DNA of 53,442 nt from a virus, in IMG/VR virus record IMGVR_UViG_3300048062_000147; one strand, 5' to 3'. Made by a program: the position numbers and the translations under genes. Below, piece after piece: positions 20,235 to 42,997 of this stretch; the first letter of the stretch is position 1; every line of letters starts with the position of its first letter. The notes beneath the pieces were generated by a model. The model saw only the letters and a list, made by a program, of their open reading frames with translations, had not been told where the DNA came from and ran no database searches.

Positions 20235-20245
20235 ACAAATGTATT

Positions 20246-20407: not shown

Positions 20408-20408
20408 T

Positions 20409-20762
20409 ATGAACAAAGTAGATTTTATACAGCTGTTACAAGCGCACGACTGGACCTACCAGTACAGCGATGACCCCAGCAAGTACAAACGAGGTCAGGC
20501 TCAACGTGAAGCCATCAACAAGGCTAGAAAGGAGCTTGGCGTAGAGGGTGATGCCCTCTACGAAACCTACAGCAAAGTACCTGAGGCTAGAATCGTTATC
20601 CCGGTGAAAGCCGAACGCACTATGCCCAAGGTAATGTGCCGTAACACTGGTCGTATGGGGCACTTAATCGATAAGAGTCCGAACGGATTTATGGAGGTTA
20701 AATTCAGCGACGGATACCGCACGGAATTCCTACGCCAGACCGACATCATCAAGCTAGGCTAA
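20409..20762 (+). CDS. Early protein, unknown function
   Basis: 117-aa ORF that starts 1 nt after the upstream stop. It has no cassette of its own. Confidence 0.6.
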   Translation: MNKVDFIQLLQAHDWTYQYSDDPSKYKRGQAQREAINKARKELGVEGDALYETYSKVPEARIVIPVKAERTMPKVMCRNTGRMGHLIDKSPNGFMEVKFSDGYRTEFLRQTDIIKLG

Positions 20763-20786
20763 GTCTAGCGGTTACTGATAACTTAA
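20753..20786 (+). promoter_or_regulatory. Hairpin + 17-mer cassette 12 (weak hairpin)
   Basis: GCTAG-N7-CTAGC at 20753-20769, abutting the 17-mer at 20770-20786. ATG 20798 is 11 nt downstream. Confidence 0.85.
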
Positions 20787-20797
20787 ATTAATGTTTT

Positions 20798-21094
20798 ATG
20801 ACAAAAGACACAATGACCATTTTTTATGAGATTGAAAGAGAGGTTAAGCCTTTCTTTGACCAGGCAAGAATCAACCTATATGGTGATGTAGCAAAGACAT
20901 CGTTAAAAGGAACACAGCGAGATGAATACATCTTTGATGGGTATGTGGAGTATTTTAAATCAATACCCAAAGATAAAGTTGGGAAACGAACCTATGTATT
21001 TGGCAAGGTGATTAAGTATGGTAGGATTCTCAGCAAAAAGCATAACCATCCATACAATGTATTCGAGATGTGCAACCTTGTGACTAAGGAGTAA
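20798..21094 (+). CDS. Early protein, unknown function
   Basis: 98-aa ORF. Confidence 0.6.
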   Translation: MTKDTMTIFYEIEREVKPFFDQARINLYGDVAKTSLKGTQRDEYIFDGYVEYFKSIPKDKVGKRTYVFGKVIKYGRILSKKHNHPYNVFEMCNLVTKE

Positions 21095-21106
21095 AAACTA
21101 AACAAA

Positions 21107-21140
21107 GCCCCTCGCTGAGGGGCGGTTACTGATAACTTAA
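21107..21140 (+). promoter_or_regulatory. Hairpin + 17-mer cassette 13
   Basis: GCCCCTC-GCT-GAGGGGC at 21107-21123, abutting the 17-mer at 21124-21140. ATG 21153 is 12 nt downstream. Confidence 0.9.
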
Positions 21141-21152
21141 ATTTATAATCTT

Positions 21153-21620
21153 ATGGGATTAGATATGTACTTGCACAAGAAAACATTTGTGCGTAATTGG
21201 GACCATATGAAAGAGTCCGAAAGAAATCACGTGTCCGTAAAGGGTGCTGAATCAAAACACATCGTAGGCGCTAGAGTATCGGAGATTACCGAGCAAATAG
21301 CCTATTGGAGAAAGGCAAACCACATACACAATTGGTTTGTTGAGAACGTTCAGAATGGCGAAGATGACTGCGGTGAATACTACCTCACCGAAGAGCACGT
21401 TAAGTCGCTTAACAAAGCTTGTAAGAAGGTCTTGGATGACAATTCTTTAGCTGAAGAGCTGTTACCTACAGCTAGTGGTTTCTTCTTTGGGGGCGTAGAG
21501 TACGACGAGTACTACTTTGAATCAGTGTTAGACACTTGGAATATAACAAGTGCCTTGATTCGGGAGATGAAAAGTTGGAATAGCGTTAGAACTGACCTTT
21601 CTTACCAAGCTTCTTGGTAG
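21153..21620 (+). CDS. Conserved-looking phage protein (MGLDMYL...YWRKANHIHNWF motif), unknown function
   Basis: 155-aa ORF. Confidence 0.65.
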   Translation: MGLDMYLHKKTFVRNWDHMKESERNHVSVKGAESKHIVGARVSEITEQIAYWRKANHIHNWFVENVQNGEDDCGEYYLTEEHVKSLNKACKKVLDDNSLAEELLPTASGFFFGGVEYDEYYFESVLDTWNITSALIREMKSWNSVRTDLSYQASW

Positions 21621-21629
21621 AAAATTAAG

Positions 21630-21662
21630 GAGGGCATTGCCCTCTGGTTACTGATAACTTAA
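21630..21662 (+). promoter_or_regulatory. Hairpin + 17-mer cassette 14 (last copy)
   Basis: GAGGGC-ATT-GCCCTC at 21630-21644, then a 1-nt spacer and the 17-mer at 21646-21662. ATG 21673 is 10 nt downstream. Confidence 0.9.
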
Positions 21663-22512: not shown

Positions 22513-23094
22513 ATGACTTTAGGAGAAAAGCTGTCTTTGATACAGCAAGAATTCAAGGCTCAAAAGAGCCGTTACAACAGCTTCGGTAAGTACAACTTCC
22601 GTTCAGCTGAAGACATCTTAGAAGGACTGAAGCTCTTCAACAAGAAGTACAAGGTATACTTTGTGGTTAAGGAAGAGGTAACGACCTCTTTCATCGGTGC
22701 GACAACTCCGGTGATGGTCTCTAAGGCTACGATACACGATATCGAAAGCGATGCATCAGTCTCGGCAACAGCCATTGTGGGTGTTGACCTAGCGCAGAAG
22801 GGGATGCAAATACCACAAGCATTCGGTAGTGCTTCTTCTTATGGGAAGAAGTACGCACTTGGAAACCTATTATTGATCGATGACACCGCAGATGCAGATG
22901 CTACGAACAGCCACGGCAACTCCGCAGCTCCGAGCAAAGCCCCTGCGAAGAAGGATGATAGCTTCCAGCAGTCTATCGATTACTTGAAGTCTACTCCAGA
23001 CGACAAGAAGGGAGCTGTACTGCAGATGATTTTAGACAAATACGGCAACAAGTTTTCTGAGAAACAAGTAGCCGCACTTAGAAAGTTTGTCTAA
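22513..23094 (+). CDS. erf: ERF-family single-strand annealing protein
   Basis: KSRYNSFGKYNFRSAEDILEGLK and GSASSYGKKYALGNLLLIDD match the hallmark ERF segments. An exonuclease gene follows directly. Confidence 0.7.
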   Translation: MTLGEKLSLIQQEFKAQKSRYNSFGKYNFRSAEDILEGLKLFNKKYKVYFVVKEEVTTSFIGATTPVMVSKATIHDIESDASVSATAIVGVDLAQKGMQIPQAFGSASSYGKKYALGNLLLIDDTADADATNSHGNSAAPSKAPAKKDDSFQQSIDYLKSTPDDKKGAVLQMILDKYGNKFSEKQVAALRKFV

Positions 23095-23903
23095 TGGAGT
23101 TTGCTAAGTTATTGGTGGAGCGGACGGGTAAACCATACCTGTCCTACTCCGCCCTAAAATACGCCGCAGATGGTGGGAAACAGCAGGATATGAAGCTGTT
23201 TGAACTCTATGTGCGGGGGTTACTGAAGAAGGATAGCCCAGCGCTAACCTTCGGTAGCTTATACGATATGATGCTACTCGAACCGGAGAAGGTTAATGAG
23301 AGCTTCTACGTTCTTGACGACAGCGAAATCATCGCTGAACTAAAAGACGAATACAAGAACCCCAGAGCCTCGAAAGCCTACAAGGAATGGAAGGCGTCAC
23401 AAGAATCGGATGGGCGCACTCAGGTGAATGAGGAGGATTGGCAGATGGCTGTCGATATGATTAATCGTTTGGACAGCTCCGAGATTGTGGACCCTGAGAC
23501 CGGGGAGATGATCCCGGTACGCAACTTCCTTCAGGGACAAGCTCAGGTTGAATTCAATACTTGGATAGAAGAGATACCGGTACGAGGTTTCTTCGATGTA
23601 TTGGGTGACGGCTTCGTAACGGACAGCAAGTCCACAAGAAACGTATATGGCTTCAAGTACGATGTCAAGTCTTTTGACTATGACATCCAAGCCTACATCT
23701 ACACTCAGGTAGCGAAGACAGATACCTTCTATTGGGTAGCTCAAGGCAAGTCTAAGCCCTATCTAACAGCTGTTTACAAAGCTTCTCCGCAGATTATTGC
23801 TTCTGGGGAGCGTAAGTTTTGGTCCGGCGTTAGAAACATTGAGAGATGGCTCCGAGACCCATCAAAGGGCACGGAGACATTTGCTATCTACCAAGAGATA
23901 TGA
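23094..23903 (+). CDS. PD-(D/E)XK (YqaJ/RecB-like) exonuclease
   Basis: 269 aa, start overlapping the erf stop. It has the acidic-Lys motif FDVLGDGFVTDSKS and is the classical partner of an annealing protein. Confidence 0.6.
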   Translation: MEFAKLLVERTGKPYLSYSALKYAADGGKQQDMKLFELYVRGLLKKDSPALTFGSLYDMMLLEPEKVNESFYVLDDSEIIAELKDEYKNPRASKAYKEWKASQESDGRTQVNEEDWQMAVDMINRLDSSEIVDPETGEMIPVRNFLQGQAQVEFNTWIEEIPVRGFFDVLGDGFVTDSKSTRNVYGFKYDVKSFDYDIQAYIYTQVAKTDTFYWVAQGKSKPYLTAVYKASPQIIASGERKFWSGVRNIERWLRDPSKGTETFAIYQEI

Positions 23904-24507: not shown

Positions 24508-24780
24508 TCAGATATTTATCTACTGGGAACAATGAGAGAAACACATCCAATATTAGACAGCAAAGAATTCAAGTCGCTGCCTTGGCGCAAACGTATTATC
24601 GTTAGGCTCAAGGTGGCTTTCGCTGAATTCATATCAATGCTTTAACGAGGTATAACATAATGTCGGGGAGGAGTATTTTTTGGTTTGACATTTGCCTTCG
24701 TGGTGAAGGCGCCTCCCCACATTTACCTGACTAAACGTGTACCAAAGTGGTACACGAGTAACCTTCAAAACAAAAGAGAG

Positions 24781-25335
24781 ATGAATTGGCTAAAACGATT
24801 ATTCACCAGGGAAAAGAAAGAAAAATGGACAGCTACTTACTGTTCGGATAACTACGAAGTTAGTAACCTAGGAAGGGTGCGGAGTCTAGACAGGCTTACC
24901 ACTGACGGAAGGCTTTATAAAGGAAGACTAAAGAAGTTAAGCCTATGTAAAACTGGCTACCTTAAAGTGAATGTCACCATTGATGGGAAAAATAAAGTAT
25001 ATAACGTCCATCAGTTAGTATACTGCTCCTTTAACAAGGGTGAGCTGAGTGGCTATAAATATGTAGTAGATCATATTAACGGTGACCCTTTAGACAATAG
25101 ATTAGATAACCTTCAATTTGTTTCGCAATGGGAAAATGTTATGAAGGGGAGAGCAAACAAGTACAACTTACCTAAGTACATTACAGCTTGTCCTTACCAC
25201 TACGACAGGAGTAAGTTGATGTATTGTTACATACCTGTCATTAACAAAAAGCAGCGTGTTCTTAAATCGTCTATAGATCTACAAAAAGTTTTGAAGTTTA
25301 AAGAGGAGCATCAAAAAAGTTTGTCTATCGAATAG
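24781..25335 (+). CDS. HNH homing endonuclease (NUMOD4 + HNH_3 type)
   Basis: YEVSNLGRVRS (NUMOD4-like) and VDHINGDPLDNRLDNLQ (HNH). I place the start at ATG 24781, because the track's upstream extension is a structured leader. Confidence 0.9.
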   Translation: MNWLKRLFTREKKEKWTATYCSDNYEVSNLGRVRSLDRLTTDGRLYKGRLKKLSLCKTGYLKVNVTIDGKNKVYNVHQLVYCSFNKGELSGYKYVVDHINGDPLDNRLDNLQFVSQWENVMKGRANKYNLPKYITACPYHYDRSKLMYCYIPVINKKQRVLKSSIDLQKVLKFKEEHQKSLSIE

Positions 25336-27371: not shown

Positions 27372-27852
27372 GGATGATATCAAAAGAGTTTGTGACAACA
27401 CAAAGAATCTCTTAGTAAAAAAGAACGAGGCATACGGCGACAGCGCACTCAATCCACTAGGCATCTTCGGAAATGGAGATGCCGTCGTGTCTCTAGGGGC
27501 TAGGATGGATGACAAGCTGATGCGCCTGAAGGGTCTTGGCATAGGCAAAGAATCGATAGATACTTTGTACGACCTACACGGATACATAACTTTACTTATT
27601 ATCGCAATCGAAAGAAAAGAAAACCTAAACAGCTTAGATTCTGTATGTGATGACGATAGTAATACAACAAAATTAATTTCAGATGCTAGAGAAAACCATA
27701 ACGATGTTCAAGAACGTCAGGGATACGACCGACCCACAACACACTACCATACAAATCTCACTGGAGCGTATCAAGAGTGGCAAACAGAAATCCTTGATAG
27801 AGAGGGTACGTGGAGTACACAGCGTGGACCAGAACGGGAATCCGATTCCTGA
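27364..27852 (+). CDS. Small helical protein (DUF1599/MazG-like pattern KNEAYGDS...DKLMRL); 3' end uncertain
   Basis: The N-terminal 90 aa look like a real domain. The last 56 codons overlap the primase gene out of frame and are low-complexity. Confidence 0.45.
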   Translation: MTKDDIKRVCDNTKNLLVKKNEAYGDSALNPLGIFGNGDAVVSLGARMDDKLMRLKGLGIGKESIDTLYDLHGYITLLIIAIERKENLNSLDSVCDDDSNTTKLISDARENHNDVQERQGYDRPTTHYHTNLTGAYQEWQTEILDREGTWSTQRGPERESDS

Positions 27853-29506
27853 CAAAGAAGCTAAGCTTGAGCTTCCTGTAGTGATGTACAGCGGGAAGTT
27901 CTCCGGACGTAAAGACAATGACTTAGAAGAGCACAGCAGTGTCATCGTATTAGACTTTGACCACATAAACGTAGATGAATCCAAGCGTGTTCTAGCTACA
28001 GATGACTACGTACTTGCCTGTTGGGTGTCTCCAAGTGGAGACGGACTTAAAGCTTTGGTTAAAGTATCTACACCTAGCAAACACCGTGATCACTTCCGTG
28101 CCATATCTTCTTATATGGAACGTCAGTACGGGCTAGAGGTAGACCCTACGGGACAGAATGAAGCTCGCCTATGCTTCGAGTCATACGACCCGGAGATAAT
28201 CGTTAACGAGGATGCTAAGGTTTTCTCTTCGCTTCTTTCAGAGCGCAGTGAAAACCAAACCGCACAGTCCGCACCCAACACAGACTACAACAAGTTAGCT
28301 GTTCTTGCTGCTATGATTCGTAGGGCAGAAGACGGAGCCAAACACCAAGAGCTGCTGAAGGCGGCGAATCTTGCAGGAGGTTTCATTGCCGCAGGACGTG
28401 TAGAGGAAGACGAGGCTAAGCGTCTGCTCATCAAAGAGATACTCAAAAGAGATGTCGATAGCGAGGAAGCAGCTATAAATACCATACGAGAAGGTATTGA
28501 GCGTGGAAAGACTATGCCTGTACAGGACGTGGTTGACAATGAGAACAGAATTAAAAGAGAGATGCTCATCAACGATGGGGATATGTCTTTTATTTCCGAC
28601 TCCGATTCAGACTACCAATGGATACACAAGTTTGCCATTGGAGAGATCCCCAAAGGTCTCGACACTGGCAACGCAAGGCTAGACCAGTACTTCAGATACA
28701 AGCCTGAGTTTGTTATTATCAATGGACACTCTAACGTGGGTAAGACTACGATGGCACTGTACCTGATGGTGAATTCATCCATACGTCACGGATGGAGATG
28801 GATTGTATACAGCTCTGAGAATAAGACAGCCGCTATCAAGATGCGCCTGATGGAGTTCATACTAGATATCCCTATCAATATGATGACCTATGCTGAGCGC
28901 ACAGCTGCATTCAGCTGGGTATCTGAACACTTCAAGGTGATATCGAACTCAGATGTATACAGCTATATGGACCTGATCATCTTTGCTGAGAAGCTCATCC
29001 AGTACGAGGGTAACTACCAAGGCTTCTTCGTAGATCCTTACAACAGCTTGAAGATACAGATGGGTCAGGGGTCAGCACTGTCTACACACGACTACCATTA
29101 CGAAGCGGCTAGTGAGCTGTTGACCTTCACCAATAGACACGATATGGCTATGTGGCTTAACGCACACTCAGTGACTGAGGCGCAGAGACAGAAGGGTCCA
29201 GACGGATTGCCTGTCGCTCCGTTCGCAGAGCAGACTGAAGGAGGCGGTAAGTTCGTGAACCGCAGCGATTCTTTTCTGACGTTTCACAGACGGGTCCAAG
29301 CACCTACCTCTGATGAACGTAGAACTATGGAGTTCCACGTTCGTAAGGTACGCTCACAAGAAACTGGTGGTGAACCTACTCCATTGGATGAGCCATTCCT
29401 ATTCAGAATGAACATAGAGCGCACTGGATTCGAGACACTTGATACTCATAGGAGATTATTTGAGCCATTGGTGATAAAAAATGAGCAAACTTACTTTGAA
29501 ATCTGA
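27683..29506 (+). CDS. Primase-helicase (VirE-N/BT4734-like primase domain + P-loop DnaB/RecA-like domain)
   Basis: The N-terminus (FKNVRDT...LERIKSGK...LPVVMYSGKFSGR...VIVLDFDH) fits the BT4734/VirE N-terminal domain. It has Walker A INGHSNVGKTT and a Walker-B-like FFVDPYNS. Confidence 0.7.
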   Translation: MLEKTITMFKNVRDTTDPQHTTIQISLERIKSGKQKSLIERVRGVHSVDQNGNPIPDKEAKLELPVVMYSGKFSGRKDNDLEEHSSVIVLDFDHINVDESKRVLATDDYVLACWVSPSGDGLKALVKVSTPSKHRDHFRAISSYMERQYGLEVDPTGQNEARLCFESYDPEIIVNEDAKVFSSLLSERSENQTAQSAPNTDYNKLAVLAAMIRRAEDGAKHQELLKAANLAGGFIAAGRVEEDEAKRLLIKEILKRDVDSEEAAINTIREGIERGKTMPVQDVVDNENRIKREMLINDGDMSFISDSDSDYQWIHKFAIGEIPKGLDTGNARLDQYFRYKPEFVIINGHSNVGKTTMALYLMVNSSIRHGWRWIVYSSENKTAAIKMRLMEFILDIPINMMTYAERTAAFSWVSEHFKVISNSDVYSYMDLIIFAEKLIQYEGNYQGFFVDPYNSLKIQMGQGSALSTHDYHYEAASELLTFTNRHDMAMWLNAHSVTEAQRQKGPDGLPVAPFAEQTEGGGKFVNRSDSFLTFHRRVQAPTSDERRTMEFHVRKVRSQETGGEPTPLDEPFLFRMNIERTGFETLDTHRRLFEPLVIKNEQTYFEI

Positions 29507-29907: not shown

Positions 29908-30100
29908 ATCCTACTACACGGCTCTTTATATGGTGCACGATTTAACAACAGACCTTTACGAATCCATTCACGATGAGAAAGGCAATCCTATTCTAGACGA
30001 AGAGTTCTTATACCAGCTGATACAGCAGTACAAGAAGGTCGTTCGTGGGGAACTAGATATGATTAAATCTGCAGCAGCACAGTACAATGAGTCAAGATAA
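29858..30100 (+). CDS. Hypothetical protein (start uncertain)
   Basis: 80-aa ORF overlapping the rusA 3' end. An alternative start is ATG 29885. Confidence 0.45.
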   Translation: MSSEQKLNAMDIKAVSKSYYTALYMVHDLTTDLYESIHDEKGNPILDEEFLYQLIQQYKKVVRGELDMIKSAAAQYNESR

Positions 30101-31055
30101 GATAGTACTAGTATTTTTGGATGCATTGCAAGGTGTAAACTTCCACAGATTGCAGACACCATTCTTGAGGCTGATGTCTAGAGGTATGCGTGTACATTTC
30201 TTCAAGGACTTTGATGAGCTGAAGACATTCAATACTGATGTTATCTCTCACATCGTAGTGTCTAGAAGATGTACCGTAAACAATTACAAGGCATTCAGTG
30301 AATGGCTCAAGGCTAACGACATCAAGCTGGTGCTTGATCTCGATGACTACTGGGAACTGCCAAAGCATAATGCGGCACACGACTTTTATAAGAAGCATAA
30401 GTCTATTGAGATTCTGGAGTCTATAAAGATGTGTGACATAATCTGGACACCGTCTAGATATCTAGGCAATCGTATGTCAAAGGTTAATCCAAAGGCAGAG
30501 GTTCACATCATACCCAATACACTGGACCTTACCCACAGCCAATGGCAGCAGAAGAAGAAGCCTAGCAAGGAGGTAAGGTTCGGATACCTTGGTGCGAAGA
30601 ACCACGGCAAGGACATCAACCTGATATCTTATGACTTCACCGGAAAGCAAATGCACTGCGTGAATATAGAGGACTACCCAGCGAGGTTCAAGGCTTCACA
30701 CATAATGCAACCGGGAACCATTGGAGACTACGGAAAGATGTACGAGAACTTTGATGTTTCTCTGGCGCCGCTTCAAGGCGGCACCTTCAACAAATCTAAG
30801 AGTGATCTTAAGGTTGTTGAGGCAGGGTACACAAGAAGCTCTATCATAGCCTCCAACACCACCCCCTACAAGGAGAGCATAGAGAACAACGTAACAGGCT
30901 TGCTGTGCTCTACACCAAGGGACTGGAAGCACGCCATTGAATCTATGACCAAGGAGAAGCATCGTGAGCTGTCAGGTAATCTGAACAAGCACATCAAGAA
31001 GCACTACGACTTGGACAAGTTGAATAAAATACGAACAGACTCTCTAGGACTTTAA
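30087..31055 (+). CDS. GT-B fold glycosyltransferase (group-1-like)
   Basis: 322 aa. The C-terminal half (FGYLGAKNHGKD...SKSDLKVVEAGYTRSSIIASNTTPYKESIENNVTGLL...DW..AI) follows the GT1 C-terminal domain pattern. Confidence 0.6.
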   Translation: MSQDKIVLVFLDALQGVNFHRLQTPFLRLMSRGMRVHFFKDFDELKTFNTDVISHIVVSRRCTVNNYKAFSEWLKANDIKLVLDLDDYWELPKHNAAHDFYKKHKSIEILESIKMCDIIWTPSRYLGNRMSKVNPKAEVHIIPNTLDLTHSQWQQKKKPSKEVRFGYLGAKNHGKDINLISYDFTGKQMHCVNIEDYPARFKASHIMQPGTIGDYGKMYENFDVSLAPLQGGTFNKSKSDLKVVEAGYTRSSIIASNTTPYKESIENNVTGLLCSTPRDWKHAIESMTKEKHRELSGNLNKHIKKHYDLDKLNKIRTDSLGL

Positions 31056-31664: not shown

Positions 31665-31706
31665 GAGAGGGGTCTTTACAACCCCTCTCGCCACTTAATT
31701 TAATTG
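31665..31706 (+). promoter_or_regulatory. Hairpin + ACTTAATTTAATT element (second cassette type)
   Basis: GAGAGGGGT-N7-ACCCCTCTC at 31665-31689, followed by GCCACTTAATTTAATTGACT. ATG is at 31710. Confidence 0.5.
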
Positions 31707-31709
31707 ACT

Positions 31710-32258
31710 ATGAATAAAACACAACGAGAAATCGAGGACGTGCTGCAGGTACGTCTATCCTTTATGCAGCTAGAGGATTACTGGGACAGGTACTCAAGAA
31801 AGAACAACGTCACTAGCAGCAGACTACACGAAAACGTAATACACCGACACGCATTCTGCCACGCAGTAAGGGAGAATGCTAGAATGTCCCTGCAGAAAAT
31901 TGGTAAGATCATTGGGCGTGATCACGCAACAGTTATATGGGGATGCAAGAATCACGAGATGAACTATAGGTTCGACTCTGATTACAGGATTGTATACGAC
32001 AACATCAACCAAGAGATACAGCATATGCTTCTAGAGAACGGCGTGGTCCCCAAGACCATAGCCGATGGTAACGATGTCAGGGATGTACACTTCAAGTTTC
32101 TAGATCTTTCAAAGAAGTTAAGAAGATCTATCAATACAGTCAACAGCTACAAGGTTGAGATCAATAAGGTAGAGGTATACAAGAAGCATATCGCCGAACT
32201 TCAAGCTAAAAACCAAAGGCTTAATAAAGAATTATCTAGATTAAAGAATCTACTCTAA
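31710..32258 (+). CDS. DnaA-domain-IV-like HTH DNA-binding protein with C-terminal coiled coil
   Basis: VIHRHAFCHAVRENARMSLQKIGKIIGRDHATVIWGCKNHE parallels the DnaA C-terminus (R..AMYL.RE.T..SL..IG..FG.RDHTTVLHA). Confidence 0.6.
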   Translation: MNKTQREIEDVLQVRLSFMQLEDYWDRYSRKNNVTSSRLHENVIHRHAFCHAVRENARMSLQKIGKIIGRDHATVIWGCKNHEMNYRFDSDYRIVYDNINQEIQHMLLENGVVPKTIADGNDVRDVHFKFLDLSKKLRRSINTVNSYKVEINKVEVYKKHIAELQAKNQRLNKELSRLKNLL

Positions 32259-34046: not shown

Positions 34047-34271
34047 TTATTTTTGTTTAGCAAATTTTTCTAATCCAGAAACACCTAATGATCCAAGGGT
34101 CACTATAACAAAGCTGTTATATGTAAACTCGTTGATGTGTAGGTCTTTCCCAAACGCACCAGTGATCACATCGGCAAGCATCACTAGTACCATTACAGCA
34201 AAGGAGAGAAAACCTATAATGGTTTTCTCGTTCCAATTGTTGTCGTCCTTAAATATATCTGTGAACTTCAT
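34047..34271 (-). CDS. Holin candidate
   Basis: 74 aa with two TM helices and a charged C-terminus, immediately upstream of the endolysin. Confidence 0.6.
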   Translation of the reverse strand: MKFTDIFKDDNNWNEKTIIGFLSFAVMVLVMLADVITGAFGKDLHINEFTYNSFVIVTLGSLGVSGLEKFAKQK

Positions 34272-37200
34272 TATATATCTTCAATCTTTAGCTGTATGTA
34301 TTGCTTGTTGAAATCGGCAACCAATTTGTATCTAGCCTTTTCAAGCTGGTCCAGTCTAGCTTCTTGCTTTAGTGGATCCTTGATGCCTGCCGCCTCGTCC
34401 TCAAGCTTACTAATTTTTTTCAAACGAGATTTGTAATCCTTACCCATCTTATGCATTTTATATATCTTCTTGGCATCTGCCCCTTCGATTATGCCTGCCT
34501 TTACTTCCTTGAACTTTTGGTTAACATCAACAGTTCTTTCATAGAAGCTGTTTATATTTGAATACTCGTATGGCTGTCCGTTGAAGGTACGTACAAAAGG
34601 AATCTGTCTAGATTCTAGCTCGTCCCAGTTACCAGTCAAAATCTTATCTATAACATTTGCAGATCTTGTCACAAACTTACCCGCACCACCAGTAATAGTT
34701 TCAACTACAAAATCAGCCTTATCTGGATTTACATCTATGTATCCTGATCTATACGCAGACCCTCCAGTAACTTCGTTCAACCATTTAGCGATTGACTGTG
34801 TCCATCTGTAACCACTTTCTTTTCCTAATTGAGACTCCGGCTTTGGTGCAGGGTCGTATATGAAATTCTCGTTATATATCTTCTGTCCAAAATAATCTTC
34901 GTTAAGACCTATAGCCACTGGGATCTGAGTAGCAGTAGGCAAAATAAATTTAATAAAGAATGAAGAAGCATCTTTACTGGTAGGAAAGTTAATCGGGGAG
35001 AAAGAACCTATCGCAGTCTGCCCTATTGCCGATGCTACTTCTCCCGGAGTCTTAGTTCCATTCAATCCTTCAGATATGTAAGAACCTGCTACATAGAATA
35101 CGTTCGACCCATATGGCAAAGGTATCTTCCAATAGTCCTTGCCGTTAGGCTTCATAATGATTATGTTTCTTTCTTTTTCGAATTCCGGTATCTTAGAGAA
35201 GAAAGATTCTTCATCCTCATCTTCATCGCTCATCCATTCATTGAATACCGACATAACACCGCCCATAACAAACAAACCTACAGCCATCTTCTGCGCTCTG
35301 GTAAGGTGATACTTTCTATTCCCCTCGCTGTCTATTTTGTATGCAGGCTTTAAGCTACGTAACAATCTAGAGCTACCCTGAACAGAGGCATTGAAGAACA
35401 GATATAGGGTGTTACCCATCTGTCCTAATGAACCAGTTTTGTTAAAGTTAACTGTCAAGTTCTTTCCGAGCTCGGCGGCTTTGGCTCTAGGGGTGCCAGC
35501 CTTCCGAGCATTGACATATGCTGATAAACGAACTGCATTCTCTACAGAAGAGTTTACACGCTCAACTAAGTTAGCTGCAGCTTTGATTGCATTATCTCCT
35601 TTACCTCTTATCAACTTCTCAATGTCCTTGTTTATTTGATCTGCAGGCTTACTATAGAACCATTCAGTCTTAGCGCCGTCCTCCAAGAACTCCTTGTAGT
35701 ACTGATCCATATCCTTGTTTCTGGAGGCTTCCTTCTTGCCAGTCCATCCACCCTCAACAGCGAATATAGTTTTAAGTGCAGGGTACACATCTTTAACTGT
35801 CTTGCCTACAATGTTCTTATCTTTTATAAGTCCATCGTCTAGATCCTGTTCAGCATACAAGTTCAATACAGCTGTCTGAATATCTCTAGAGAAGTTACGG
35901 AATACGAAATCAGGATCGTATGTGGTAATCAAGCTACTAAGCATTCTGTTGAACCCACCTATATATTTAGTGAACCATTCAGCCTTAACTACATTAGCTC
36001 CTCTAAGAACATTAGCTAGATCAGCATCCTTAAATCTGACAAACTTGTAGTCACCATCAATACGGACAGATACCATACTCTCGTCAAGAAGATAATCGGA
36101 AACAGATTTAGCAACTGCTATCACCTTACCATCACGCATTGAGGTCTTATAATCTTTAGACGTTTCTGGATCTACAATTTCGTAAATATCTTTGTTCGGG
36201 TTGTTCTTAGCGAGTTCATAGAACCTTTTCATAACGTCGTTCTTAGCACCTCTAATAATTGTAGTGGTGTTAGAGATGATAGCCTGAGTCAAAGGAGAGT
36301 CTGCTTTTCTTTGACGTCCCTTAGCTCTTCTCTCTCTGGCACGTACCTCTAGTTTGCCACCGCCTTCAATAAACTCTGAGCCGAACTGCTCATCTGCGAA
36401 ACCTCTAAGCGGTACGTAGTTTTTATACGTAGCGTTAAATGCATCTATAGTGCCCTGAGATTCTAGACCAGACTCAACCAATCTATTTCTAGTATCTGCT
36501 ATCAACTCTCTGATAGCTGTTACTGCTGTGCGAATCTTCGGAGACAGCTGAGACACATCTGGAGATGTTAGATTGAGATCGTACTTAGCCAATATCTTTC
36601 TAGCTTCTACATCAGTCATACCAGAACCATCCTTCACTAACGCATTGTCATAGAAGAATCTGTAAGGTGTTGATCCATAGATCAATAGAAGGTCAGTCAA
36701 GTCAGACGACTTCAGATCTCTCTTGTTGGCTTCAATCTCTAGGTACTGTTCTTTAGAGATGCCTAGTAGCTGAGCGACATCTGTCGGTGTCATACCGCTT
36801 GTCTTTCTCATTCTAGATAAGTTCTTGCCAATATCTGTAGAGATAGTGCGAAGATATCTGTTTCGCTCCTGAGCGTGCATAGCATACAGCAACTCGTTAA
36901 CATCGTCTACTGACAGACCAGACTTCTTGATCTTGCTAGTGATGTCTTTTATTCTGTCTTCTGTTTTGTCTAGCTCGCTCTTAGCTTTACCGTGCATCAA
37001 TACTTCCGCATTACGGAAGTCTTGGTCTAGACCAACAGGCTTACCTGTAGCGTACTCAATATCTTCTTGGATGACAATGATGTCTCTGTAGCTGTCTTGT
37101 ATTCTACGTCTAGTAAGATCTACGAAACGCTCAAAAGCATTTCTTTCTCTTGACTTCCAAGTATCTGAGGCGGCAACATCTTGATCCACCTTATTGTCTA

Positions 37201-40200
37201 TCTGAGATCTAAACACACCTTCTTTATTGTCCTCAATGGCAGAGTATGTTTCCTTAGCGTTCTCTTCTTGTTTTACTTGGTCTTCAATCTGGAATCGTAC
37301 CGTTTCCCCCTTAGAGTTCTTGTACTCCTGAAGCTCCATAGGTTCAACCTTAGCTACCTTTGGAATAGCTCCAGCACTTGACGTAACATTAGATACAGCA
37401 AATTTAGGATCGGCTTTAGTGGATACCTCTGGACCAGACATATTGTACTTAGTGTACTCGTTAGTCAGGTCATAAGACTTGTAGTATTTGTTTGGCTGTA
37501 AGATACTTTTGATTACAGCTTTAACAGTCCATCCGAATGATGGGTGGTGATCTGGATCTCCCGGCTTAGTCTTAGATACCTCAAAGGTATTAGGATCAAA
37601 CTCTACAAAGCTCATAATCTCACCACCTTCAACACCTTGATTAAGAGGGTCTGCAATAAGATTGTAGAACTGATTCAAGTTCTTAATACCGATAGCATTT
37701 TGGAATTCTTTACTCGCAGCGATCTTCTGGTTAAGAGCTTTACGTAAGTTAGGAGAATAGTTGTTCTCAGCGTCAAGAAGCTCCACTAGTTTCATAGGGT
37801 TCTTCTTAAACGAGTTTAGATTTTTAAGTCTAGAGTTATTCTTTTCGTTGAACGCCTTGAATGCTTTGGAACCTTCTTTAGACTTGATGGCTTCGTTGAA
37901 CACTTCCATCAATCTAGCTTTGCTCATAATCTTGTTATCAAGCACTGCCTTTACCAGCTCCTCAAAGATATGGTGCTGGAACTGCCAAGAATCTGTCAAG
38001 GTTCCTGAGTGTGGGGCAAACAGATCAGCATTACCTTCTTTGGCGTTTCTGATAAACCCTTCTGCCTGTGACTTAGAGTTGAACGCAGCTAGGTTGGAAA
38101 CCTCGCCGAGTTCTTTACCATTGCGCTCAAGCATTAGGGGCACATAGTTTCTACCACCCAACAGCTCAATAGAAATACCATTACCTAGTTCGGTTGTACC
38201 CGCACTAGTATAATCATACATATTGGTAACGAAGTTTCTACCTTCTAGCTCATTGATGTCTATGTCAGTAACAAACTTGTTGACGAATCCTCTAGCGTCA
38301 TCAGACGCTTTAGGAGCGTCGATGACCTCTATCTGTTCTTTAGGTATGGAAATAGTGCCTACCTCTCCAGATTCGCCCTGCTCTTCAATCTGAATTTCCT
38401 TCTCTTGTAGGTATGGGTTTGCAACAAACTCATCAGGCAACAAGCCTACTTTCTGAGGGGCAAATTTCATTGTAGCGTAAGCCTTGTCTGTAAACTCCTG
38501 TGCCTCTTCAAGCTTCCCTTCCTTACGAAGGGCTCTACCTTTGTCTCTGAGTTTAAATGCTTCGTCGTTAACTCCAGAGAAGTTTACATAGCTGTTCTGA
38601 CCTCTAGTCTCAGCTGTCAATGCTTTACGTGCTAGTGGGCTGTACATTCTAGAGTGTACATCCCAGGCGTTCTCCTCTCCGATAGGACCGAAACCGTTAC
38701 CTCTCTCTGCGTGTCCAAAGAAGTCGTGTACAAATCTAAAGACATCATTTAATAATAGTGTTCGACCATTTACATCTTTGTATTTTGTCTCTGCTAGAAG
38801 CGGGTTGTCTTTTCTTTGATCAGCTGTGATGCCTGCATCACCGAACCCTGAGTCTGTACTGAAGATTCGCATATTCTTGTTCTTGCGAAGATCTTCGATC
38901 AACTCATTACTGTTGTTGTACGGCTCGTTATTATTTACCTCTACTTTGTATCCACCCTTAATAATAGCCTCGTACTGCTCTATAGTTTCATCAGCCATAG
39001 CCTTATATGCAGCAGCAACCTCTGGACTGGTAGGGTTGTTCTTCATCGCTGTATAGGCGTCAGAGATCCTTTTTGCGAGCTTTTTGTCAATCTTTCTAAT
39101 CAGATTACCATCTGTGTGTTTGAGCCCCTTAGACTCCATATAAGCGATAGCTATAGTGCGTGCATCCTTGAGTGGTTCATTGGCTATTCTAGAACCTACC
39201 GGAACGTCTAACTGTAACCTAGAAGCCTCATAAGGATTCTTGCTGTTCACAACAGCTGCTGCCTCTGGGTTTATCTCAACTGTTAGCTCGGTACGTCCTT
39301 CAAGTGCATCTAAGAATCCATTGACAAAGTCAAACGCTTCCTCCTTAGACTTAATAGCTGTGTCGTCTATCTTGAGTCCTAGTACATCGTTAAGTATTCT
39401 AACAACAGCTTTTCTGATTCGCTCAATAGTTGACAGAGACATCTTCTGTACATCAATGCCGTCCTTGACCTCTGCAACAAACTCAGCTAAGAACTCCTCG
39501 GCAATCACTGCATCCTCAAGAGTTAGACCCTTGCCGTACACCTCTCTGTTGAGGTATTCTTTTTGGAAAGCTGTTAGCTTATTGGCTAACGCTTTCTCTA
39601 CCTTGGTACCTTTACTCAATTGTAATCTCACCTCATTAGTGAATCGCACAATCTGTTTTGAGTTTAGATCAACAGCTTTAACATAAGCGTGCATCATCTC
39701 GTGAGACAAGCTGCCTAGGCTAGCTTTGTCTGCATTTACTACTACAGCAGATGTGCCATCCTCAAGTGTTCTGAATTGAGCTCTTGACGAAGACCCTGTA
39801 ACGTTCTGCATATCAGCATCGCTAACTACATATACATTTACAGGAGCAGCACCAATAGACGATAACGCACTATTGAAACTCTCAATCATCTGTGGTGCCT
39901 TATCACTAAGATTGATAGCATCCACAGAAGCAGTTTCTAGCTGTTGTCTATCAGCGCTTGGTTCTTCAGCGACAGCTGCTTCTTCCACTGCAGCCTGATC
40001 AACCATTACTTCAACACCATATGTTTTCTTGCCTCTTCTACCAGTTGTTTCGGTAGATAATACAAGTAGGCTTGGATCCTCCACAGACAATCTTTCCTGA
40101 AGGGCTTCCACTGCTGCCATTGCCTCTTCTTCTGTGGCGTAGGTCATTTCCTCTTCAGGGAATATTCTTCGCCCTGTAGTAGGATCTTCTGCAACAGCTT

Positions 40201-42997
40201 CTTCTACTACTGCTTCTTCTACTGGTACTTCTTCTGTAACAGCTTCTTCAGCTGTTACTTCTTCAGGTGCTTGAACATCTCTATCTGCCGCAACCTCTTC
40301 AACGCCTGCTTCTTCGATAGGTTCGCCTTCGACAACGGCTTGCCCTTCTTCGACAGGACTTGGTACCCCTGCTTCTTCTTGACTAACATCTTCTAAGTAT
40401 TTACTTTCGATCGCTGTCTTTCTGCTTCTGGCATCTACAAGTTTGGATCTAGCCTCTTGCTTTTCTTCGACAGTTTCGGCTACACCGAACTGTCTAGACA
40501 ACTCACGTATTTCTGTATTGATATCTGATATATCGGCTTGGTCTTCCGCTGAGAACTCCGCAGGAGCTTCAGCTATTGGAGCCTCTTCTACTACCACTTC
40601 TTCAACCGTAGGTTCTGCAACCATCGGCTCCTCGACTACAGGCTCTTCAGCAACAGCTTCTTCTACAGGAGCTTCCTGTTCTACTACAGAAAACTTATCA
40701 GCTAATAGATCTGTTACCTCTGAATCATTTGTAGCTTCCCAAGAGCCTTGGGTAATCTCTTCAGGAGTGGCTGCCTCTAGCTGTTCTATAAATTGTTCTC
40801 TACTGAGGAACTTACCATCACGAAGATATGTAGCATTTCTTCGCTCAGCCATATTAACTAGCTCAGCATCTATTTCTTTTATCCTGTCGGTCTTATCCTT
40901 TACAAGGTTTTTATCTTTGCCTTGTATCTGTTCGTCAAGGGTTTGCTTTTCGACAAGTAGCTCAAGAGCTTTCTTTTGATCGGCAGTGTTTAAGTCGGTT
41001 GGGATCTGTGTGGTTACGCCAATGATTCTGTTAAACTCATCAAAATTTTGCTTAGCCTCAGCTTCCGTCATCTCACCAGCAGAGACTTTTTGTCTTAGGC
41101 TTTGACCATACATAGTGGTAAACTCAGAGTCGGTAGACATATCCTTAAGCATATTAAACGCATCATCGTCTATTAAGCTCATCTCCTTGTTATTCACTGC
41201 ATTGACCACAGCTCCCGGAGTAGATAGCACAAAACCACCTACAGCTTCTTGAGCACCGCCCTTTAAAACCTCACCAGCAAATTCAATCCAAGTGTTAGGG
41301 GTCTGGAACATATCCTTATCCTTGGAGATATTGTATATTTCCTTTATGCTGATTTCAGCAGCCTGTTGCGCTGCACCTGTTTCAAATTCTGCAAGACCAC
41401 CGGCACCCACAGTAAGGATACCACGAGCCATCATATTCTCAACATCCTCTCTAATAAACTGAGAAAATGCCTTAGCTGACGTTGAGTTTGTAGATCTGCC
41501 TAGAGCTCTCGCTACTAAGCCATTGAGTAGACCCTTCTGGTTTATGATGTTTCTAAAACCATATGTTTCTAGCACAGCGACAGTTACACCAACTGGAGCT
41601 GTAATGTAGTACTTTTCACTTTCAGATATATCGTCAAACTCTGGATTGCTCTCCATCTCTTGGTTCAACTGATCTGTTGTTAGGGCATACATATTTGCAG
41701 TACGCTGAGCCCAACCCATAGGACCAGCACCACCAGCCATAGCAGGTAATGATTCAGCAAGTCCAAGAATAGCACCGCCCCAGAAGCCTTCCTTCTGCAT
41801 ATCACGCCACTGCTCTGTGGTTCCCTTGTCTCCAAACAGCTCACGAGCACCTTCACGTGTAGCGTCTACAATACCCATCTCTGGATCTGTATTTGCAGCT
41901 ACAAATGAATATGGGTTTCTGAAGTACCCCTCCCCAAACTTTACGCCTTTCTTAGCGTTGTCTTTAGCCTTCTCATCTATAATCTGTCCAAGGGTTTTCC
42001 CAGCTGAGCGAGTACCATATTGCTGAAAGCTAACTGGACCAAACTCCGCTCCGAAATCTTCAGTTGTTTCTGCAGGCTCCTCTGGAACACTGTATTTCAT
42101 TTGCTCCTTAATCTCAGCTACAGTCATATCTTCATAACCTTCAGGAAGAAGGTCTGAATATCCTAACTGCTCTGCAGCGCTTATAAATGTTTCTCTATAG
42201 CCCTTCTCTCCCATCGCTGGTGTTGGGAAGTATTCTACCATAAAGTCTGTGATCATACTCATCTGACCTGCAGAAATAGAACCCACGCCTGATAAAACGC
42301 TGTTCCAGATACCTCCAGCCCAGTTACCTTTCTGAGACTGCACGTCAACGAAATCACCCACCATCTTATCTAGACGGGTACCTTGTTCCTTGAAGTACTT
42401 CTCTCTCTCAACAAGATCTGCATATTCTTGCTGTAGTGCTATATCCCTCTCTTTGAATTCGTCGTATTCTAACTTAAGAGATGGATTGATGTTGATCTGC
42501 TCTTCTGTGAGGCCTCCAAATTTATCGTTGTATTCAACCTTAATCTCTTGAGCACGGGCGGTCCAAGAATCTATATCTTCTTTATACTTCTTGGTTTCCT
42601 CATTGAATATATTCGATGCCTTTTCTACGTCTTCTTGGCTGCGAATAATGTTTTGCTGTTTAGAAAAGTCAAGTGAGTAATCGTTTATAGCTTCACTATC
42701 TACTGTATCTTGAGGGAAGAACGCATCCTCAGGTTGTTCTGTATATGTCGAATCGCCATCCAAAGATACTGAAGGAATAGCGGCGTCTTTTTTTTTTACT
42801 GTAGGCTCAGGGAACTTATACTGATTAAGGAACTCTTCCTTACTCTTGGTATAGAAACCATCTCTGCTAACAACATCGAAAACCTTTTCTTTGTATTCCG
42901 GTTCTTCTAGATACTTGAAAGCAAACTCTTCCCAAGTTTTAGTATAGTAACCTTCTCTTACAAGAAGGTCATAAAGTTTTACTAATTCGTCGTCCAT
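34271..42997 (-). CDS. Giant (2908 aa) polyvalent internal-virion/ejection protein candidate
   Basis: It occupies the position of T7 gp16. Features: a zincin motif HEMMH at nt 39689-39703; a His-rich motif HDFFGH at 38711-38728; an embedded XRE-type HTH (MTPTDVAQLLGISKEQYLEIEANKRDL, nt about 36715-36793); an E/V/A-rich acidic low-complexity tract (nt about 40120-40630); N-terminal tandem repeats (R(E/D)G(Y/F)YTK..EEF); and a C-terminal hydrophobic segment. Confidence 0.6.
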   Translation of the reverse strand: MDDELVKLYDLLVREGYYTKTWEEFAFKYLEEPEYKEKVFDVVSRDGFYTKSKEEFLNQYKFPEPTVKKKDAAIPSVSLDGDSTYTEQPEDAFFPQDTVDSEAINDYSLDFSKQQNIIRSQEDVEKASNIFNEETKKYKEDIDSWTARAQEIKVEYNDKFGGLTEEQININPSLKLEYDEFKERDIALQQEYADLVEREKYFKEQGTRLDKMVGDFVDVQSQKGNWAGGIWNSVLSGVGSISAGQMSMITDFMVEYFPTPAMGEKGYRETFISAAEQLGYSDLLPEGYEDMTVAEIKEQMKYSVPEEPAETTEDFGAEFGPVSFQQYGTRSAGKTLGQIIDEKAKDNAKKGVKFGEGYFRNPYSFVAANTDPEMGIVDATREGARELFGDKGTTEQWRDMQKEGFWGGAILGLAESLPAMAGGAGPMGWAQRTANMYALTTDQLNQEMESNPEFDDISESEKYYITAPVGVTVAVLETYGFRNIINQKGLLNGLVARALGRSTNSTSAKAFSQFIREDVENMMARGILTVGAGGLAEFETGAAQQAAEISIKEIYNISKDKDMFQTPNTWIEFAGEVLKGGAQEAVGGFVLSTPGAVVNAVNNKEMSLIDDDAFNMLKDMSTDSEFTTMYGQSLRQKVSAGEMTEAEAKQNFDEFNRIIGVTTQIPTDLNTADQKKALELLVEKQTLDEQIQGKDKNLVKDKTDRIKEIDAELVNMAERRNATYLRDGKFLSREQFIEQLEAATPEEITQGSWEATNDSEVTDLLADKFSVVEQEAPVEEAVAEEPVVEEPMVAEPTVEEVVVEEAPIAEAPAEFSAEDQADISDINTEIRELSRQFGVAETVEEKQEARSKLVDARSRKTAIESKYLEDVSQEEAGVPSPVEEGQAVVEGEPIEEAGVEEVAADRDVQAPEEVTAEEAVTEEVPVEEAVVEEAVAEDPTTGRRIFPEEEMTYATEEEAMAAVEALQERLSVEDPSLLVLSTETTGRRGKKTYGVEVMVDQAAVEEAAVAEEPSADRQQLETASVDAINLSDKAPQMIESFNSALSSIGAAPVNVYVVSDADMQNVTGSSSRAQFRTLEDGTSAVVVNADKASLGSLSHEMMHAYVKAVDLNSKQIVRFTNEVRLQLSKGTKVEKALANKLTAFQKEYLNREVYGKGLTLEDAVIAEEFLAEFVAEVKDGIDVQKMSLSTIERIRKAVVRILNDVLGLKIDDTAIKSKEEAFDFVNGFLDALEGRTELTVEINPEAAAVVNSKNPYEASRLQLDVPVGSRIANEPLKDARTIAIAYMESKGLKHTDGNLIRKIDKKLAKRISDAYTAMKNNPTSPEVAAAYKAMADETIEQYEAIIKGGYKVEVNNNEPYNNSNELIEDLRKNKNMRIFSTDSGFGDAGITADQRKDNPLLAETKYKDVNGRTLLLNDVFRFVHDFFGHAERGNGFGPIGEENAWDVHSRMYSPLARKALTAETRGQNSYVNFSGVNDEAFKLRDKGRALRKEGKLEEAQEFTDKAYATMKFAPQKVGLLPDEFVANPYLQEKEIQIEEQGESGEVGTISIPKEQIEVIDAPKASDDARGFVNKFVTDIDINELEGRNFVTNMYDYTSAGTTELGNGISIELLGGRNYVPLMLERNGKELGEVSNLAAFNSKSQAEGFIRNAKEGNADLFAPHSGTLTDSWQFQHHIFEELVKAVLDNKIMSKARLMEVFNEAIKSKEGSKAFKAFNEKNNSRLKNLNSFKKNPMKLVELLDAENNYSPNLRKALNQKIAASKEFQNAIGIKNLNQFYNLIADPLNQGVEGGEIMSFVEFDPNTFEVSKTKPGDPDHHPSFGWTVKAVIKSILQPNKYYKSYDLTNEYTKYNMSGPEVSTKADPKFAVSNVTSSAGAIPKVAKVEPMELQEYKNSKGETVRFQIEDQVKQEENAKETYSAIEDNKEGVFRSQIDNKVDQDVAASDTWKSRERNAFERFVDLTRRRIQDSYRDIIVIQEDIEYATGKPVGLDQDFRNAEVLMHGKAKSELDKTEDRIKDITSKIKKSGLSVDDVNELLYAMHAQERNRYLRTISTDIGKNLSRMRKTSGMTPTDVAQLLGISKEQYLEIEANKRDLKSSDLTDLLLIYGSTPYRFFYDNALVKDGSGMTDVEARKILAKYDLNLTSPDVSQLSPKIRTAVTAIRELIADTRNRLVESGLESQGTIDAFNATYKNYVPLRGFADEQFGSEFIEGGGKLEVRARERRAKGRQRKADSPLTQAIISNTTTIIRGAKNDVMKRFYELAKNNPNKDIYEIVDPETSKDYKTSMRDGKVIAVAKSVSDYLLDESMVSVRIDGDYKFVRFKDADLANVLRGANVVKAEWFTKYIGGFNRMLSSLITTYDPDFVFRNFSRDIQTAVLNLYAEQDLDDGLIKDKNIVGKTVKDVYPALKTIFAVEGGWTGKKEASRNKDMDQYYKEFLEDGAKTEWFYSKPADQINKDIEKLIRGKGDNAIKAAANLVERVNSSVENAVRLSAYVNARKAGTPRAKAAELGKNLTVNFNKTGSLGQMGNTLYLFFNASVQGSSRLLRSLKPAYKIDSEGNRKYHLTRAQKMAVGLFVMGGVMSVFNEWMSDEDEDEESFFSKIPEFEKERNIIIMKPNGKDYWKIPLPYGSNVFYVAGSYISEGLNGTKTPGEVASAIGQTAIGSFSPINFPTSKDASSFFIKFILPTATQIPVAIGLNEDYFGQKIYNENFIYDPAPKPESQLGKESGYRWTQSIAKWLNEVTGGSAYRSGYIDVNPDKADFVVETITGGAGKFVTRSANVIDKILTGNWDELESRQIPFVRTFNGQPYEYSNINSFYERTVDVNQKFKEVKAGIIEGADAKKIYKMHKMGKDYKSRLKKISKLEDEAAGIKDPLKQEARLDQLEKARYKLVADFNKQYIQLKIEDI

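Follow-up and report, generated by a model that had tools for sequence, protein, structure and literature searches.

Giant proteins that join unrelated domains in one chain were described as "polyvalent proteins" by Iyer et al. (2017), who defined the domains LPD1-40 in them and reported LPD38 only from the phage-type ones (PMC5512222). Mass spectrometry of purified virions has detected two phage giants: phi24B gp47, which is abundant there, invisible in cryo-electron microscopy (cryo-EM) and proposed to be an ejection protein (bioRxiv 10.64898/2026.04.10.717836), and JC1 gp69, with 51 unique peptides (PMC9144972). In PhicrAss001, the muzzle gp44 is followed by the cargo proteins C1 (gp45) and C2 (gp46), the very large gp47, gp49, and gp50, all of them present in virions (PMC10172136). 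The virion RNA polymerase gp50 of phage N4 is an ejected giant with an HExxH motif in its C-terminal C1 subdomain (PMC13434306; PMC5512222). Here, we describe a giant gene in the virus record IMGVR_UViG_3300048062_000147, a stretch of 53,442 bases that was analyzed as a whole and is called the window below. A single ATG-to-stop open reading frame (ORF) on the minus strand encodes a protein of 2908 amino acids (aa) and covers 8.7 kb, or 16.3% of the window; the ORF list and the translation agree with a preliminary description of this DNA, which had reported one 8.7-kb ORF making up about 16% of the genome. By its sequence, the giant protein is a phage-type large polyvalent protein, a member of an already described class.

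Class membership and module architecture

The assignment is made because LPD38 is present, homologues of the C-terminal module are virion proteins, and the gene closes the virion block. The match to Pfam LPD38 (PF18857) is strong (E=4.2e-32, 112 bits, cut-off 27), and the giant protein also matches PHROG families 14770, 616, 10691, and 3170. The preliminary description had proposed a polyvalent multi-effector ejection protein; LPD38, the effector-bearing relatives, the gene position, and the virion-borne homologues all lend support to this proposal.

Six modules were delimited by alignments of homologues (Table 1), with borders set by local BLAST of the relatives against the giant protein. An exhaustive HMMER search with aa 1010-1271 yielded 15 relatives, and a word-indexed search with aa 1531-2130 yielded 13. 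The closest look at module exchange is provided by P0014, a 2899-aa relative encoded on a 53,168-bp IMG/VR contig (L008:4208-12907) and 87-93% identical to the giant protein over the shared segments. Its alignment skips from query aa 1244 to aa 1535; therefore, with aa 1245-1534 missing, P0014 has no HDFFGH domain. A different, unannotated module of 245 aa (P0014 aa 1633-1877) stands between its domain X and its C-terminal module. Because a relative of about 90% identity lacks one module and carries another elsewhere, the modules are evidently swapped like cassettes, and the alignment indicates a recent cassette exchange inside one gene. Such cassette behavior is the defining trait of polyvalent proteins. 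Other relatives that share the HExxH or N-terminal modules add a C5 DNA methylase, a Pol-beta nucleotidyltransferase, ART-PolyVal, LPD23, DUF6782, or DUF7178. The six-module split, the conservation of residues, the homology, the genomic context, and the swapping of modules are all demonstrated.

The C-terminal module connects the giant protein with known virion giants. In tblastn, aa 2124-2900 are about 33% identical to the C-termini of the ~2800-aa giants of 933W-type Shiga toxin (Stx) phages, with weaker similarity from aa 1922; the BLASTP alignment to VT2-Sakai orf71 spans aa 1922-2900. The Stx giants (VT2-Sakai orf71, 2806 aa; phi24B gp47, 2811 aa) share with the giant protein a C-terminal module of ~780-1000 aa that includes LPD38, the overall size, and the position as the last large gene of a podovirus virion block. 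In contrast, their N-terminal two-thirds are unrelated and carry LPD5, LPD1, and a MuF-C peptidase, whereas the same part of the giant protein consists of the N-terminal module (N-module), the HExxH clade, the HDFFGH domain, and domain X. The same C-terminal module ends the giants of Vibrio phages, a Ruegeria phage, and the "DarB-like" giants of Bcep22, BcepMigl, and Ralstonia GP4. Bcep22 gp75, JC1 gp69, and the GP4 giant resemble the giant protein in this module (~22% identity, E about 1e-22 to 4e-24) but differ in being 4500-4600 aa long and annotated as DarB-like antirestriction proteins.

Comparison with the other described systems gives a similarly mixed picture. The polyvalent proteins of Iyer et al. 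(PMC5512222) resemble the giant protein in combining unrelated domains in one giant, in the zincin-like peptidase domain that serves as a hub (a predicted one in the giant protein), in the LPD domains, in their origin from phages with portal and terminase, and in the cassette-like variation of architecture. Unlike that set, the N-module, the HDFFGH domain, and domain X match no Pfam LPD or effector family, and the HExxH domain stays below every Pfam zincin cut-off. The cargo block of PhicrAss001 is similar in its crAss_MUZ-type upstream gene, in the order of a muzzle, two mid-size proteins, and a very large one, and in the probable Bacteroidota host; the 319-aa and 425-aa proteins encoded next to the giant gene occupy the position of the crassvirus cargo proteins C1 and C2. 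The differences are a genome half the size and the absence of an RNA-polymerase signature, and comparison with crassvirus cargo proteins through their PDB chains revealed no sequence similarity to the giant protein. A link to the N4-like phages is provided by a marginal fold match in BFVD between the model of the HExxH domain and the virion RNA polymerase of Vibrio phage SBP1 (prob 0.85, E=0.08); unlike N4 gp50, the giant protein has no T7-like polymerase core.

Table 1. Features of the giant gene and its neighbors, in window coordinates
Feature	Residues	Coordinates	Strand	Basis or remark
Large polyvalent protein, whole ORF	2908 aa	34271..42997	-	ORF, Pfam LPD38 and HTH, PHROG
Two tandem ~28-aa repeats (KLYDLLVREGYYTKTWEEF / KVFDVVSRDGFYTKSKEEF)	aa 6-33 and 37-64	42806..42982	-	self-alignment
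N-terminal module	aa ~119-760	40718..42643	-	homologue alignment
Acidic linker	aa ~751-1020	39938..40747	-	composition
Zincin-like HExxH domain (predicted)	aa ~1030-1245	39263..39910	-	homologues
HDFFGH domain	aa 1262-1535	38393..39214	-	homologues
Domain X	aa ~1535-1885	37343..38395	-	homologues
Conserved C-terminal module	aa 1887-2908	34274..37339	-	tblastn, BLASTP, PHROG 14770 and 616
XRE-type HTH	aa 2057-2114	36656..36829	-	Pfam HTH_19 and HTH_3
Semi-hydrophobic segment (MAVGLFVMGGVMSVFNEWM), followed by acidic patch SDEDEDEE	aa 2571-2589	35231..35287	-	Kyte-Doolittle 1.35
LPD38 domain	aa 2600-2802	34592..35200	-	Pfam PF18857
Semi-hydrophobic segment (FFIKFILPTATQIPVAIGL), inside LPD38	aa 2680-2698	34904..34960	-	Kyte-Doolittle 1.55
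Crassvirus-type muzzle (tail-tip gatekeeper) protein	1543 aa	45262..49893	-	two genes upstream of giant gene
Two proteins between muzzle and giant genes	319 aa and 425 aa	43007..45243	-	ORFs
Amidase_2 protein, probable endolysin	225 aa	33366..34043	-	Pfam PF01510, just downstream of giant gene

Domains of the N-terminal two-thirds

The HEMMH motif that the preliminary description had placed near aa 1099 lies at aa 1099-1103 (nucleotides 39689-39703). A word-indexed search with the HExxH region returned no relatives, and the exhaustive search was required. In all 15 relatives found, the domain is embedded in a larger protein (584-3760 aa, 12 of them above 2000 aa). The alignment of 13 sequences, 20-53% identical to the query, contains four invariant residues: H1099, E1100, and H1103 of the HExxH motif and the downstream E1168, a putative third metal ligand within the motif AEEFLAE. 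The AlphaFold2 (AF2) model of the domain, for which this alignment was the input, has a mean predicted local distance difference test score (pLDDT) of 81.8 and a predicted template modeling score (pTM) of 0.79. In its topology, a first helix leads into three strands, after which come the HExxH helix and further helices, one of them with E1168; all four invariant residues are in predicted helices. The layout of a helix, three strands, and the HExxH helix matches the zincin-like peptidase of polyvalent proteins as described by Iyer et al. (PMC5512222).

Database comparisons of this domain gave mixed results. Foldseek against BFVD retrieved segments of proteins annotated as polyvalent or ART-PolyVal, as well as "structural proteins" of Cellulophaga phi17:2 and Tenacibaculum and an N4-like virion RNA polymerase; E values of these matches were 7e-4 to 0.1, with prob 0.8-1.0. 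The Pfam scan of the 13 members produced only sub-threshold hits, to SprT-like (4 of 13, best E=0.007), DA1, M91, M78, DUF5700, and eCIS_core. The PDB profile search with the HExxH alignment (A1) gave IrrE, at the chance level of E about 1. Based on the invariant HExxH and distal Glu, the model topology, the recurrent weak zincin hits, and the BFVD matches, we conclude that the HExxH region is a predicted zincin-like domain, forming a clade outside all curated models.

The second motif of the preliminary description, HDFFGH followed by GEENAWDVH, is also present at the expected place (HDFFGH at aa 1424-1429), and it belongs to the best-conserved part of the giant protein. The HDFFGH core is invariant in all 39 sequences of alignment A3, where the invariant positions are Y1331, Q1341, Y1360, N1417, R1421, H1424, D1425, H1429, E1441, E1463, Q1467, and N1468. 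This polar pattern looks typical of a metal-dependent active site, and the domain is probably a metal-dependent enzyme of uncharacterized chemistry. We take the motif to resemble the HELLGH/HDLFGH motif of aromatic amino-acid hydroxylases. A hydroxylase-like 2-His-1-carboxylate site was rejected, as there was no hit to Pfam Biopterin_H and none to the PDB by sequence or fold; the reading of the HD doublet as an HD-phosphohydrolase was unsupported in the same searches. The AF2 model is confident (pLDDT 92.1, pTM 0.90), and neither profile search nor Foldseek (best E=0.11, TM-score about 0.1) found a PDB relative.

The HDFFGH family is widespread, with 121 clusters of homologues, most of them stand-alone proteins of 250-330 aa. 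No cluster has a Pfam match for this domain (two have unrelated Pfam hits), and all are named "hypothetical protein", except for one mis-annotated entry. Mycobacterium phage Rizal gp102, which corresponds to phrog_3170, is made up of the HDFFGH domain, and the domain is found inside the giants of Octadecabacter virus BD1 and of cyanophages, namely Planktothrix phage Pag-Yong1 and its relatives. Stand-alone HDFFGH genes follow the portal gene (DUF4055) and precede the scaffold and capsid genes in three other phage types, a slot that is the usual one for head-internal proteins. Stand-alone loci were seen in contigs of 40-95 kb (L006:8001-8963, L257:2204-3193, L260:5001-5972, and L007:8001-8756). 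Members of the family are fused to DUF7178 or encoded two genes from it (P0019, P0018, and L007).

The remaining part of the N-terminal two-thirds comprises repeats, the N-module, an acidic tract, and domain X. The tandem repeats claimed for the N-terminus are real: their local self-alignment score is 67, compared with a mean of 21 and a maximum of 42 in shuffled sequences, and none of 2000 shuffles scored as high. An N-terminus resembling this repeat region is also present in P0019. The N-module combines coiled-coil-like stretches with Gly/Ala-rich semi-hydrophobic segments (FWGGAILGLAESLPAM, LAEFETGAAQQ, and GAQEAVGG). It is common to the giants P0014, P0021 (29% identity), and P0017, with a conserved core in alignment A6, and has no match in PDB, PHROG, Pfam, or NCBIfam. 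The linker that follows agrees with the E/V/A-rich acidic tracts of the preliminary description: it contains 76 D/E versus 19 K/R residues (net charge -57), with E/V/A/P making up to 72% of a 50-aa window. Comparable tracts occur in P0017, P0018, and P0010. Degenerate short tandem repeats are visible in the DNA at positions 40185-40264, inside the part coding for the linker.

Domain X (~350 aa) has many invariant residues and the conserved motifs MYDYT, SNxAAFN, PHxG...SWQFQ, NNYSxxLRK, and DHHPSF (alignment A4). It is matched by 12 of the 13 hits obtained among 5.8 billion proteins, and some of these relatives are fused to ART-PolyVal, LPD23, or DUF6782. At least two domain X relatives come from TARA Oceans (marine) samples. 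The domain has no match in Pfam, NCBIfam, or PDB and lies outside every PHROG hit to the whole protein.

The helix-turn-helix insertion and the early-gene elements

The XRE-type helix-turn-helix (HTH) that had been claimed at aa ~2069-2095 was found within slightly wider borders (Table 1). With the whole protein as a query, HTH_19 scored 28.3 bits, just below its cut-off of 30.2; with the isolated segment aa 1900-2130, both HTH_19 (35.2 bits) and HTH_3 (25.4 bits, cut-off 23) exceeded their cut-offs. Beyond weak HTH hits, NCBIfam contains nothing that matches the giant protein. The HTH is situated in a 77-aa linker between the conserved motifs HAQERN and GSGMTD. The Stx giants differ here in having no HTH insertion: the equivalent linker of VT2-Sakai orf71 (from HAPERN to GSGMT) is 14 aa long, that is, about 60 residues shorter. 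Thus, sequence comparison identifies the HTH as a discrete insertion of ~60 residues in a loop of the C-terminal module.

The insertion is kept in five relatives, with a variable recognition helix, and all four relatives that were scanned (P0013, P0014, P0018, and P0019) reach the cut-off for HTH_3 or HTH_19. Of 72 IMG/VR loci in which both flanking motifs occur, only three have the HTH insertion, of 77-79 aa; in the other 69, the linker measures 11-39 aa. Among 36 reference-genome loci, L262 is the sole confirmed HTH carrier; L283, with a similar match length and 23% identity, was left uninspected. The preliminary description had called an HTH in an injected protein unusual, and it is indeed rare. 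However, "other HTH domains" were already mentioned as rare in polyvalent proteins by Iyer et al. (PMC5512222), so the HTH of the giant protein is uncommon and clade-specific but has a precedent.

A set of repeated elements precedes the early genes of the window. The 18-mer CGGTTACTGATAACTTAA is present in 14 near-identical copies at positions 17296-21662, all on the plus strand, compared with 0.09 copies expected by chance. Each copy is directly 3' of a GC-rich hairpin of variable sequence, with a stem of 5-7 bp and compensatory changes, and is located 10-13 nucleotides before the ATG of a small early ORF. These hairpin elements look like a phage-specific early promoter or regulatory cassette. 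The motif is also multi-copy in two near-identical IMG/VR contigs and in four other contigs.

These observations bring up two speculative extensions, which, taken together, we consider unlikely. In one of them, the HTH is a sequence-specific anchor or pioneer regulator that may bind the 14 elements composed of the hairpin and the 17-mer GGTTACTGATAACTTAA (dyad GTTA-N4-TAAC) upon DNA entry. In the other, the HDFFGH domain may represent a new metal-dependent enzyme fold that acts as a capsid-delivered effector. If true, HTH binding would tie the ejection of the protein to the regulation of early transcription or to internalization of the genome, and would do so in a muzzle-bearing phage without a virion RNA polymerase. 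Counting against the pioneer-regulator reading, L009/L189, a more distant relative that also bears the HTH, shows no CGGTTACTGATAACTTAA motif in the 9 kb examined upstream of its helicase gene, and hence the link between the HTH and the 17-mer is unsupported.

Genomic setting, proposed mechanism, and rival readings

The minus-strand order of genes is muzzle, 319-aa protein, 425-aa protein, giant protein, and Amidase_2 protein. The genes for the portal, the large terminase subunit, the structural proteins, and the muzzle are all on the strand of the giant gene, and no large gene of the virion block comes after it. The order of the muzzle, two small proteins, and the giant recurs in the IMG/VR relatives L008, L009, and L010 (related contigs of 53-59 kb). 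The 1543-aa muzzle protein matches Pfam crAss_MUZ (E=2e-16) and crAss_MUZ_C (E=1e-7), as well as phrog_14478, a virion structural protein; the genome in which these muzzle models are matched is only ~53 kb long. The 319-aa and 425-aa proteins have no PHROG or Pfam match and are candidates for smaller ejection or cargo proteins. The N-terminus of the former is Gly/Ala-rich (LLALQGAAGVGKAVYGA), and no homology was found between the latter and VT2-Sakai orf70 (421 aa). The 225-aa protein downstream of the giant gene matches Pfam PF01510 (E=1.2e-6, 29.3 bits, cut-off 26).

The portal is P22-like, with the nearest relatives in podophages of Flavobacterium, Cellulophaga, Tenacibaculum, and Maribacter (29-32% identity). 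The preliminary description had placed the giant gene where T7-like phages encode their largest core protein; this T7-like context was rejected, because the portal is P22-like and the tail tip is a muzzle protein of the crassvirus type. Crassvirus cargo or the giants of 933W-type phages provide the appropriate analogy. The traits of T7 gp16 are likewise missing, as there is no transglycosylase match in Pfam and no ORF of RNA-polymerase size in the window. As judged from these genes, the phage is not T7-like but a podovirus of the Bacteroidota type, with ~53 kb of DNA, a portal like that of P22, and a muzzle like that of crassviruses. A Bacteroidota host is likely, because the closest relative of the HTH-bearing module in the genome collections is in a Sphingobacteriales metagenome-assembled genome. 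No gene for an RNA polymerase, a sigma factor, or a DNA polymerase was recognized in the window, and no ORF there is big enough for an RNA polymerase of the T7 or crassvirus type. Elsewhere in the window are replication genes encoding a primase-helicase (27683-29506), an Erf-like annealing protein (22513-23094), an exonuclease (23094-23903), and a protein with a DnaA C-terminal HTH (31704-32258). Other genes encode an HNH/NUMOD4 endonuclease (24685-25335), a glycosyltransferase (30087-31055), and a GroES-like co-chaperonin (11262-11849).

Most probably, the giant protein is a polyvalent protein that is synthesized late and packaged as cargo inside the capsid; it would leave through the short tail, gated by the muzzle, either before the DNA or along with it. 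In the proposed mechanism, its C-terminal ~1000 aa, with LPD38 and the two semi-hydrophobic segments, would be a chassis common to the virion giants of other podoviruses, which probably mediates incorporation into the virion and/or an interaction with (spanning of) the envelope at ejection. The central region would be a string of exchangeable effector modules, of which the zincin-like domain, once delivered, probably cleaves either the polyprotein itself or a target in the host. The acidic low-complexity tract would serve as a flexible spacer, and the HTH in the chassis loop would give the delivered protein a contact with double-stranded DNA. Packaging, ejection, proteolysis, catalysis, and DNA binding are thus what we infer for the giant protein.

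Several observations weigh against this scheme. The case for packaging is built on homologues that are only 22-33% identical. Of the C-terminal hydrophobic segments listed in the preliminary description, both stretches exist, and the equivalent of the one at aa 2571-2589 is conserved in VT2-Sakai orf71, but their hydrophobicity is moderate: both are below 1.6, taken here as the usual Kyte-Doolittle transmembrane threshold, and too weak for transmembrane helices. The HExxH domain reaches the cut-off of no Pfam zincin family, and Foldseek found nothing for its model in the PDB (best E=0.38). Finally, the net charge of the HTH segment is zero and the recognition helix of the relatives is partly acidic, and for these reasons the predicted HTH may not bind DNA.

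Rival readings of the giant protein differ in how much of the above they can accommodate. It could be a late protein acting in the producing cell or an external part of the virion, such as an assembly scaffold, a tail accessory, or a lysis helper. The giant gene does adjoin an amidase gene, and phi24B gp47 was unseen in cryo-EM maps, so that its internal location is itself only deduced; yet Pfam and PHROG reveal no fiber, beta-helix, or baseplate domains, the homologues are abundant in virions without forming ordered external density, and the LPD-type polyvalent architecture is that described for delivered proteins, which together make this reading rather unlikely. A mainly anti-restriction role like that of DarB, with the incoming DNA being coated or modified, is suggested by the annotation of the Bcep22, BcepMigl, and GP4 giants, which share the C-terminal module, and by an HTH that could bind DNA. 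However, this label, which the literature attributes to methylase and helicase regions, derives from domains that the giant protein lacks: its only Pfam matches are LPD38 and the HTH, with no methyltransferase or helicase, and what is shared is only the C-terminal chassis. The DarB-like reading is accordingly improbable. The reading of the listed motifs as chance matches in unstructured sequence starts from the fact that a five-residue HExxH match is fairly often expected by chance in 2908 residues. It has practically no probability left and is already refuted by the conservation data, since neither HExxH nor the distal Glu varies among 13 homologues of 20-53% identity, all 39 aligned sequences keep the HDFFGH core, the AF2 models have pLDDT values of 82 and 92, and the HTH is above Pfam cut-offs. 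The concern that the motifs might fall in non-homologous, unstructured regions is answered in the same way, by conserved domains with confidently predicted folds.

A cryptic virion RNA polymerase, or a transcription factor reading the early promoters of the phage, would be in line with the crassviruses and N4. The crassvirus-like order of muzzle and cargo genes, the lack of any recognized RNA polymerase or sigma factor elsewhere in the window, the 14 elements of a hairpin and a 17-mer that resemble a phage-specific promoter set, and the HTH of the giant protein itself are all compatible with it. However, the protein has no DxDGD motif, as already stated in the preliminary description, and no catalytic DxDxD motif either, since DxDxD is matched solely in the acidic patch SDEDEDEE (aa 2591). 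Similarity to PDB entries is absent for the whole protein by sequence (E<=1) and at chance level for the profiles A1, A3, A4, and A6, and the searched PDB library presumably contains the published structures of phi14:2 gp66 and the N4 virion RNA polymerase. The C-terminal module is common to lambdoid Stx phages, and lambdoid phages use the host polymerase. The HTH-bearing L009/L189, with no repeated element in the region described above, also argues against this reading. With neither the motif nor PDB similarity, a cryptic RNA polymerase was rejected, and the reading as a whole is highly improbable.

Reading the giant protein as capsid-delivered polyvalent cargo has several implications for this group of phages. 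The 933W/Bcep22-type virion "chassis" would extend to marine Bacteroidota podoviruses with a crassvirus-type muzzle, and two separate literatures, on polyvalent proteins and on crassvirus cargo, become linked. Three conserved domain families, the N-module, the HDFFGH domain, and domain X, are delimited without a relative in Pfam, NCBIfam, or PDB. Being widespread, adjacent to the portal gene in other phages, and endowed with an invariant His/Asp/His/Glu core and a confident model without a fold match, the HDFFGH domain is a good target in the search for a new activity of delivered effectors. Finally, cassette swapping between phages that are 90% identical amounts to a natural experiment on the roles of the individual modules.

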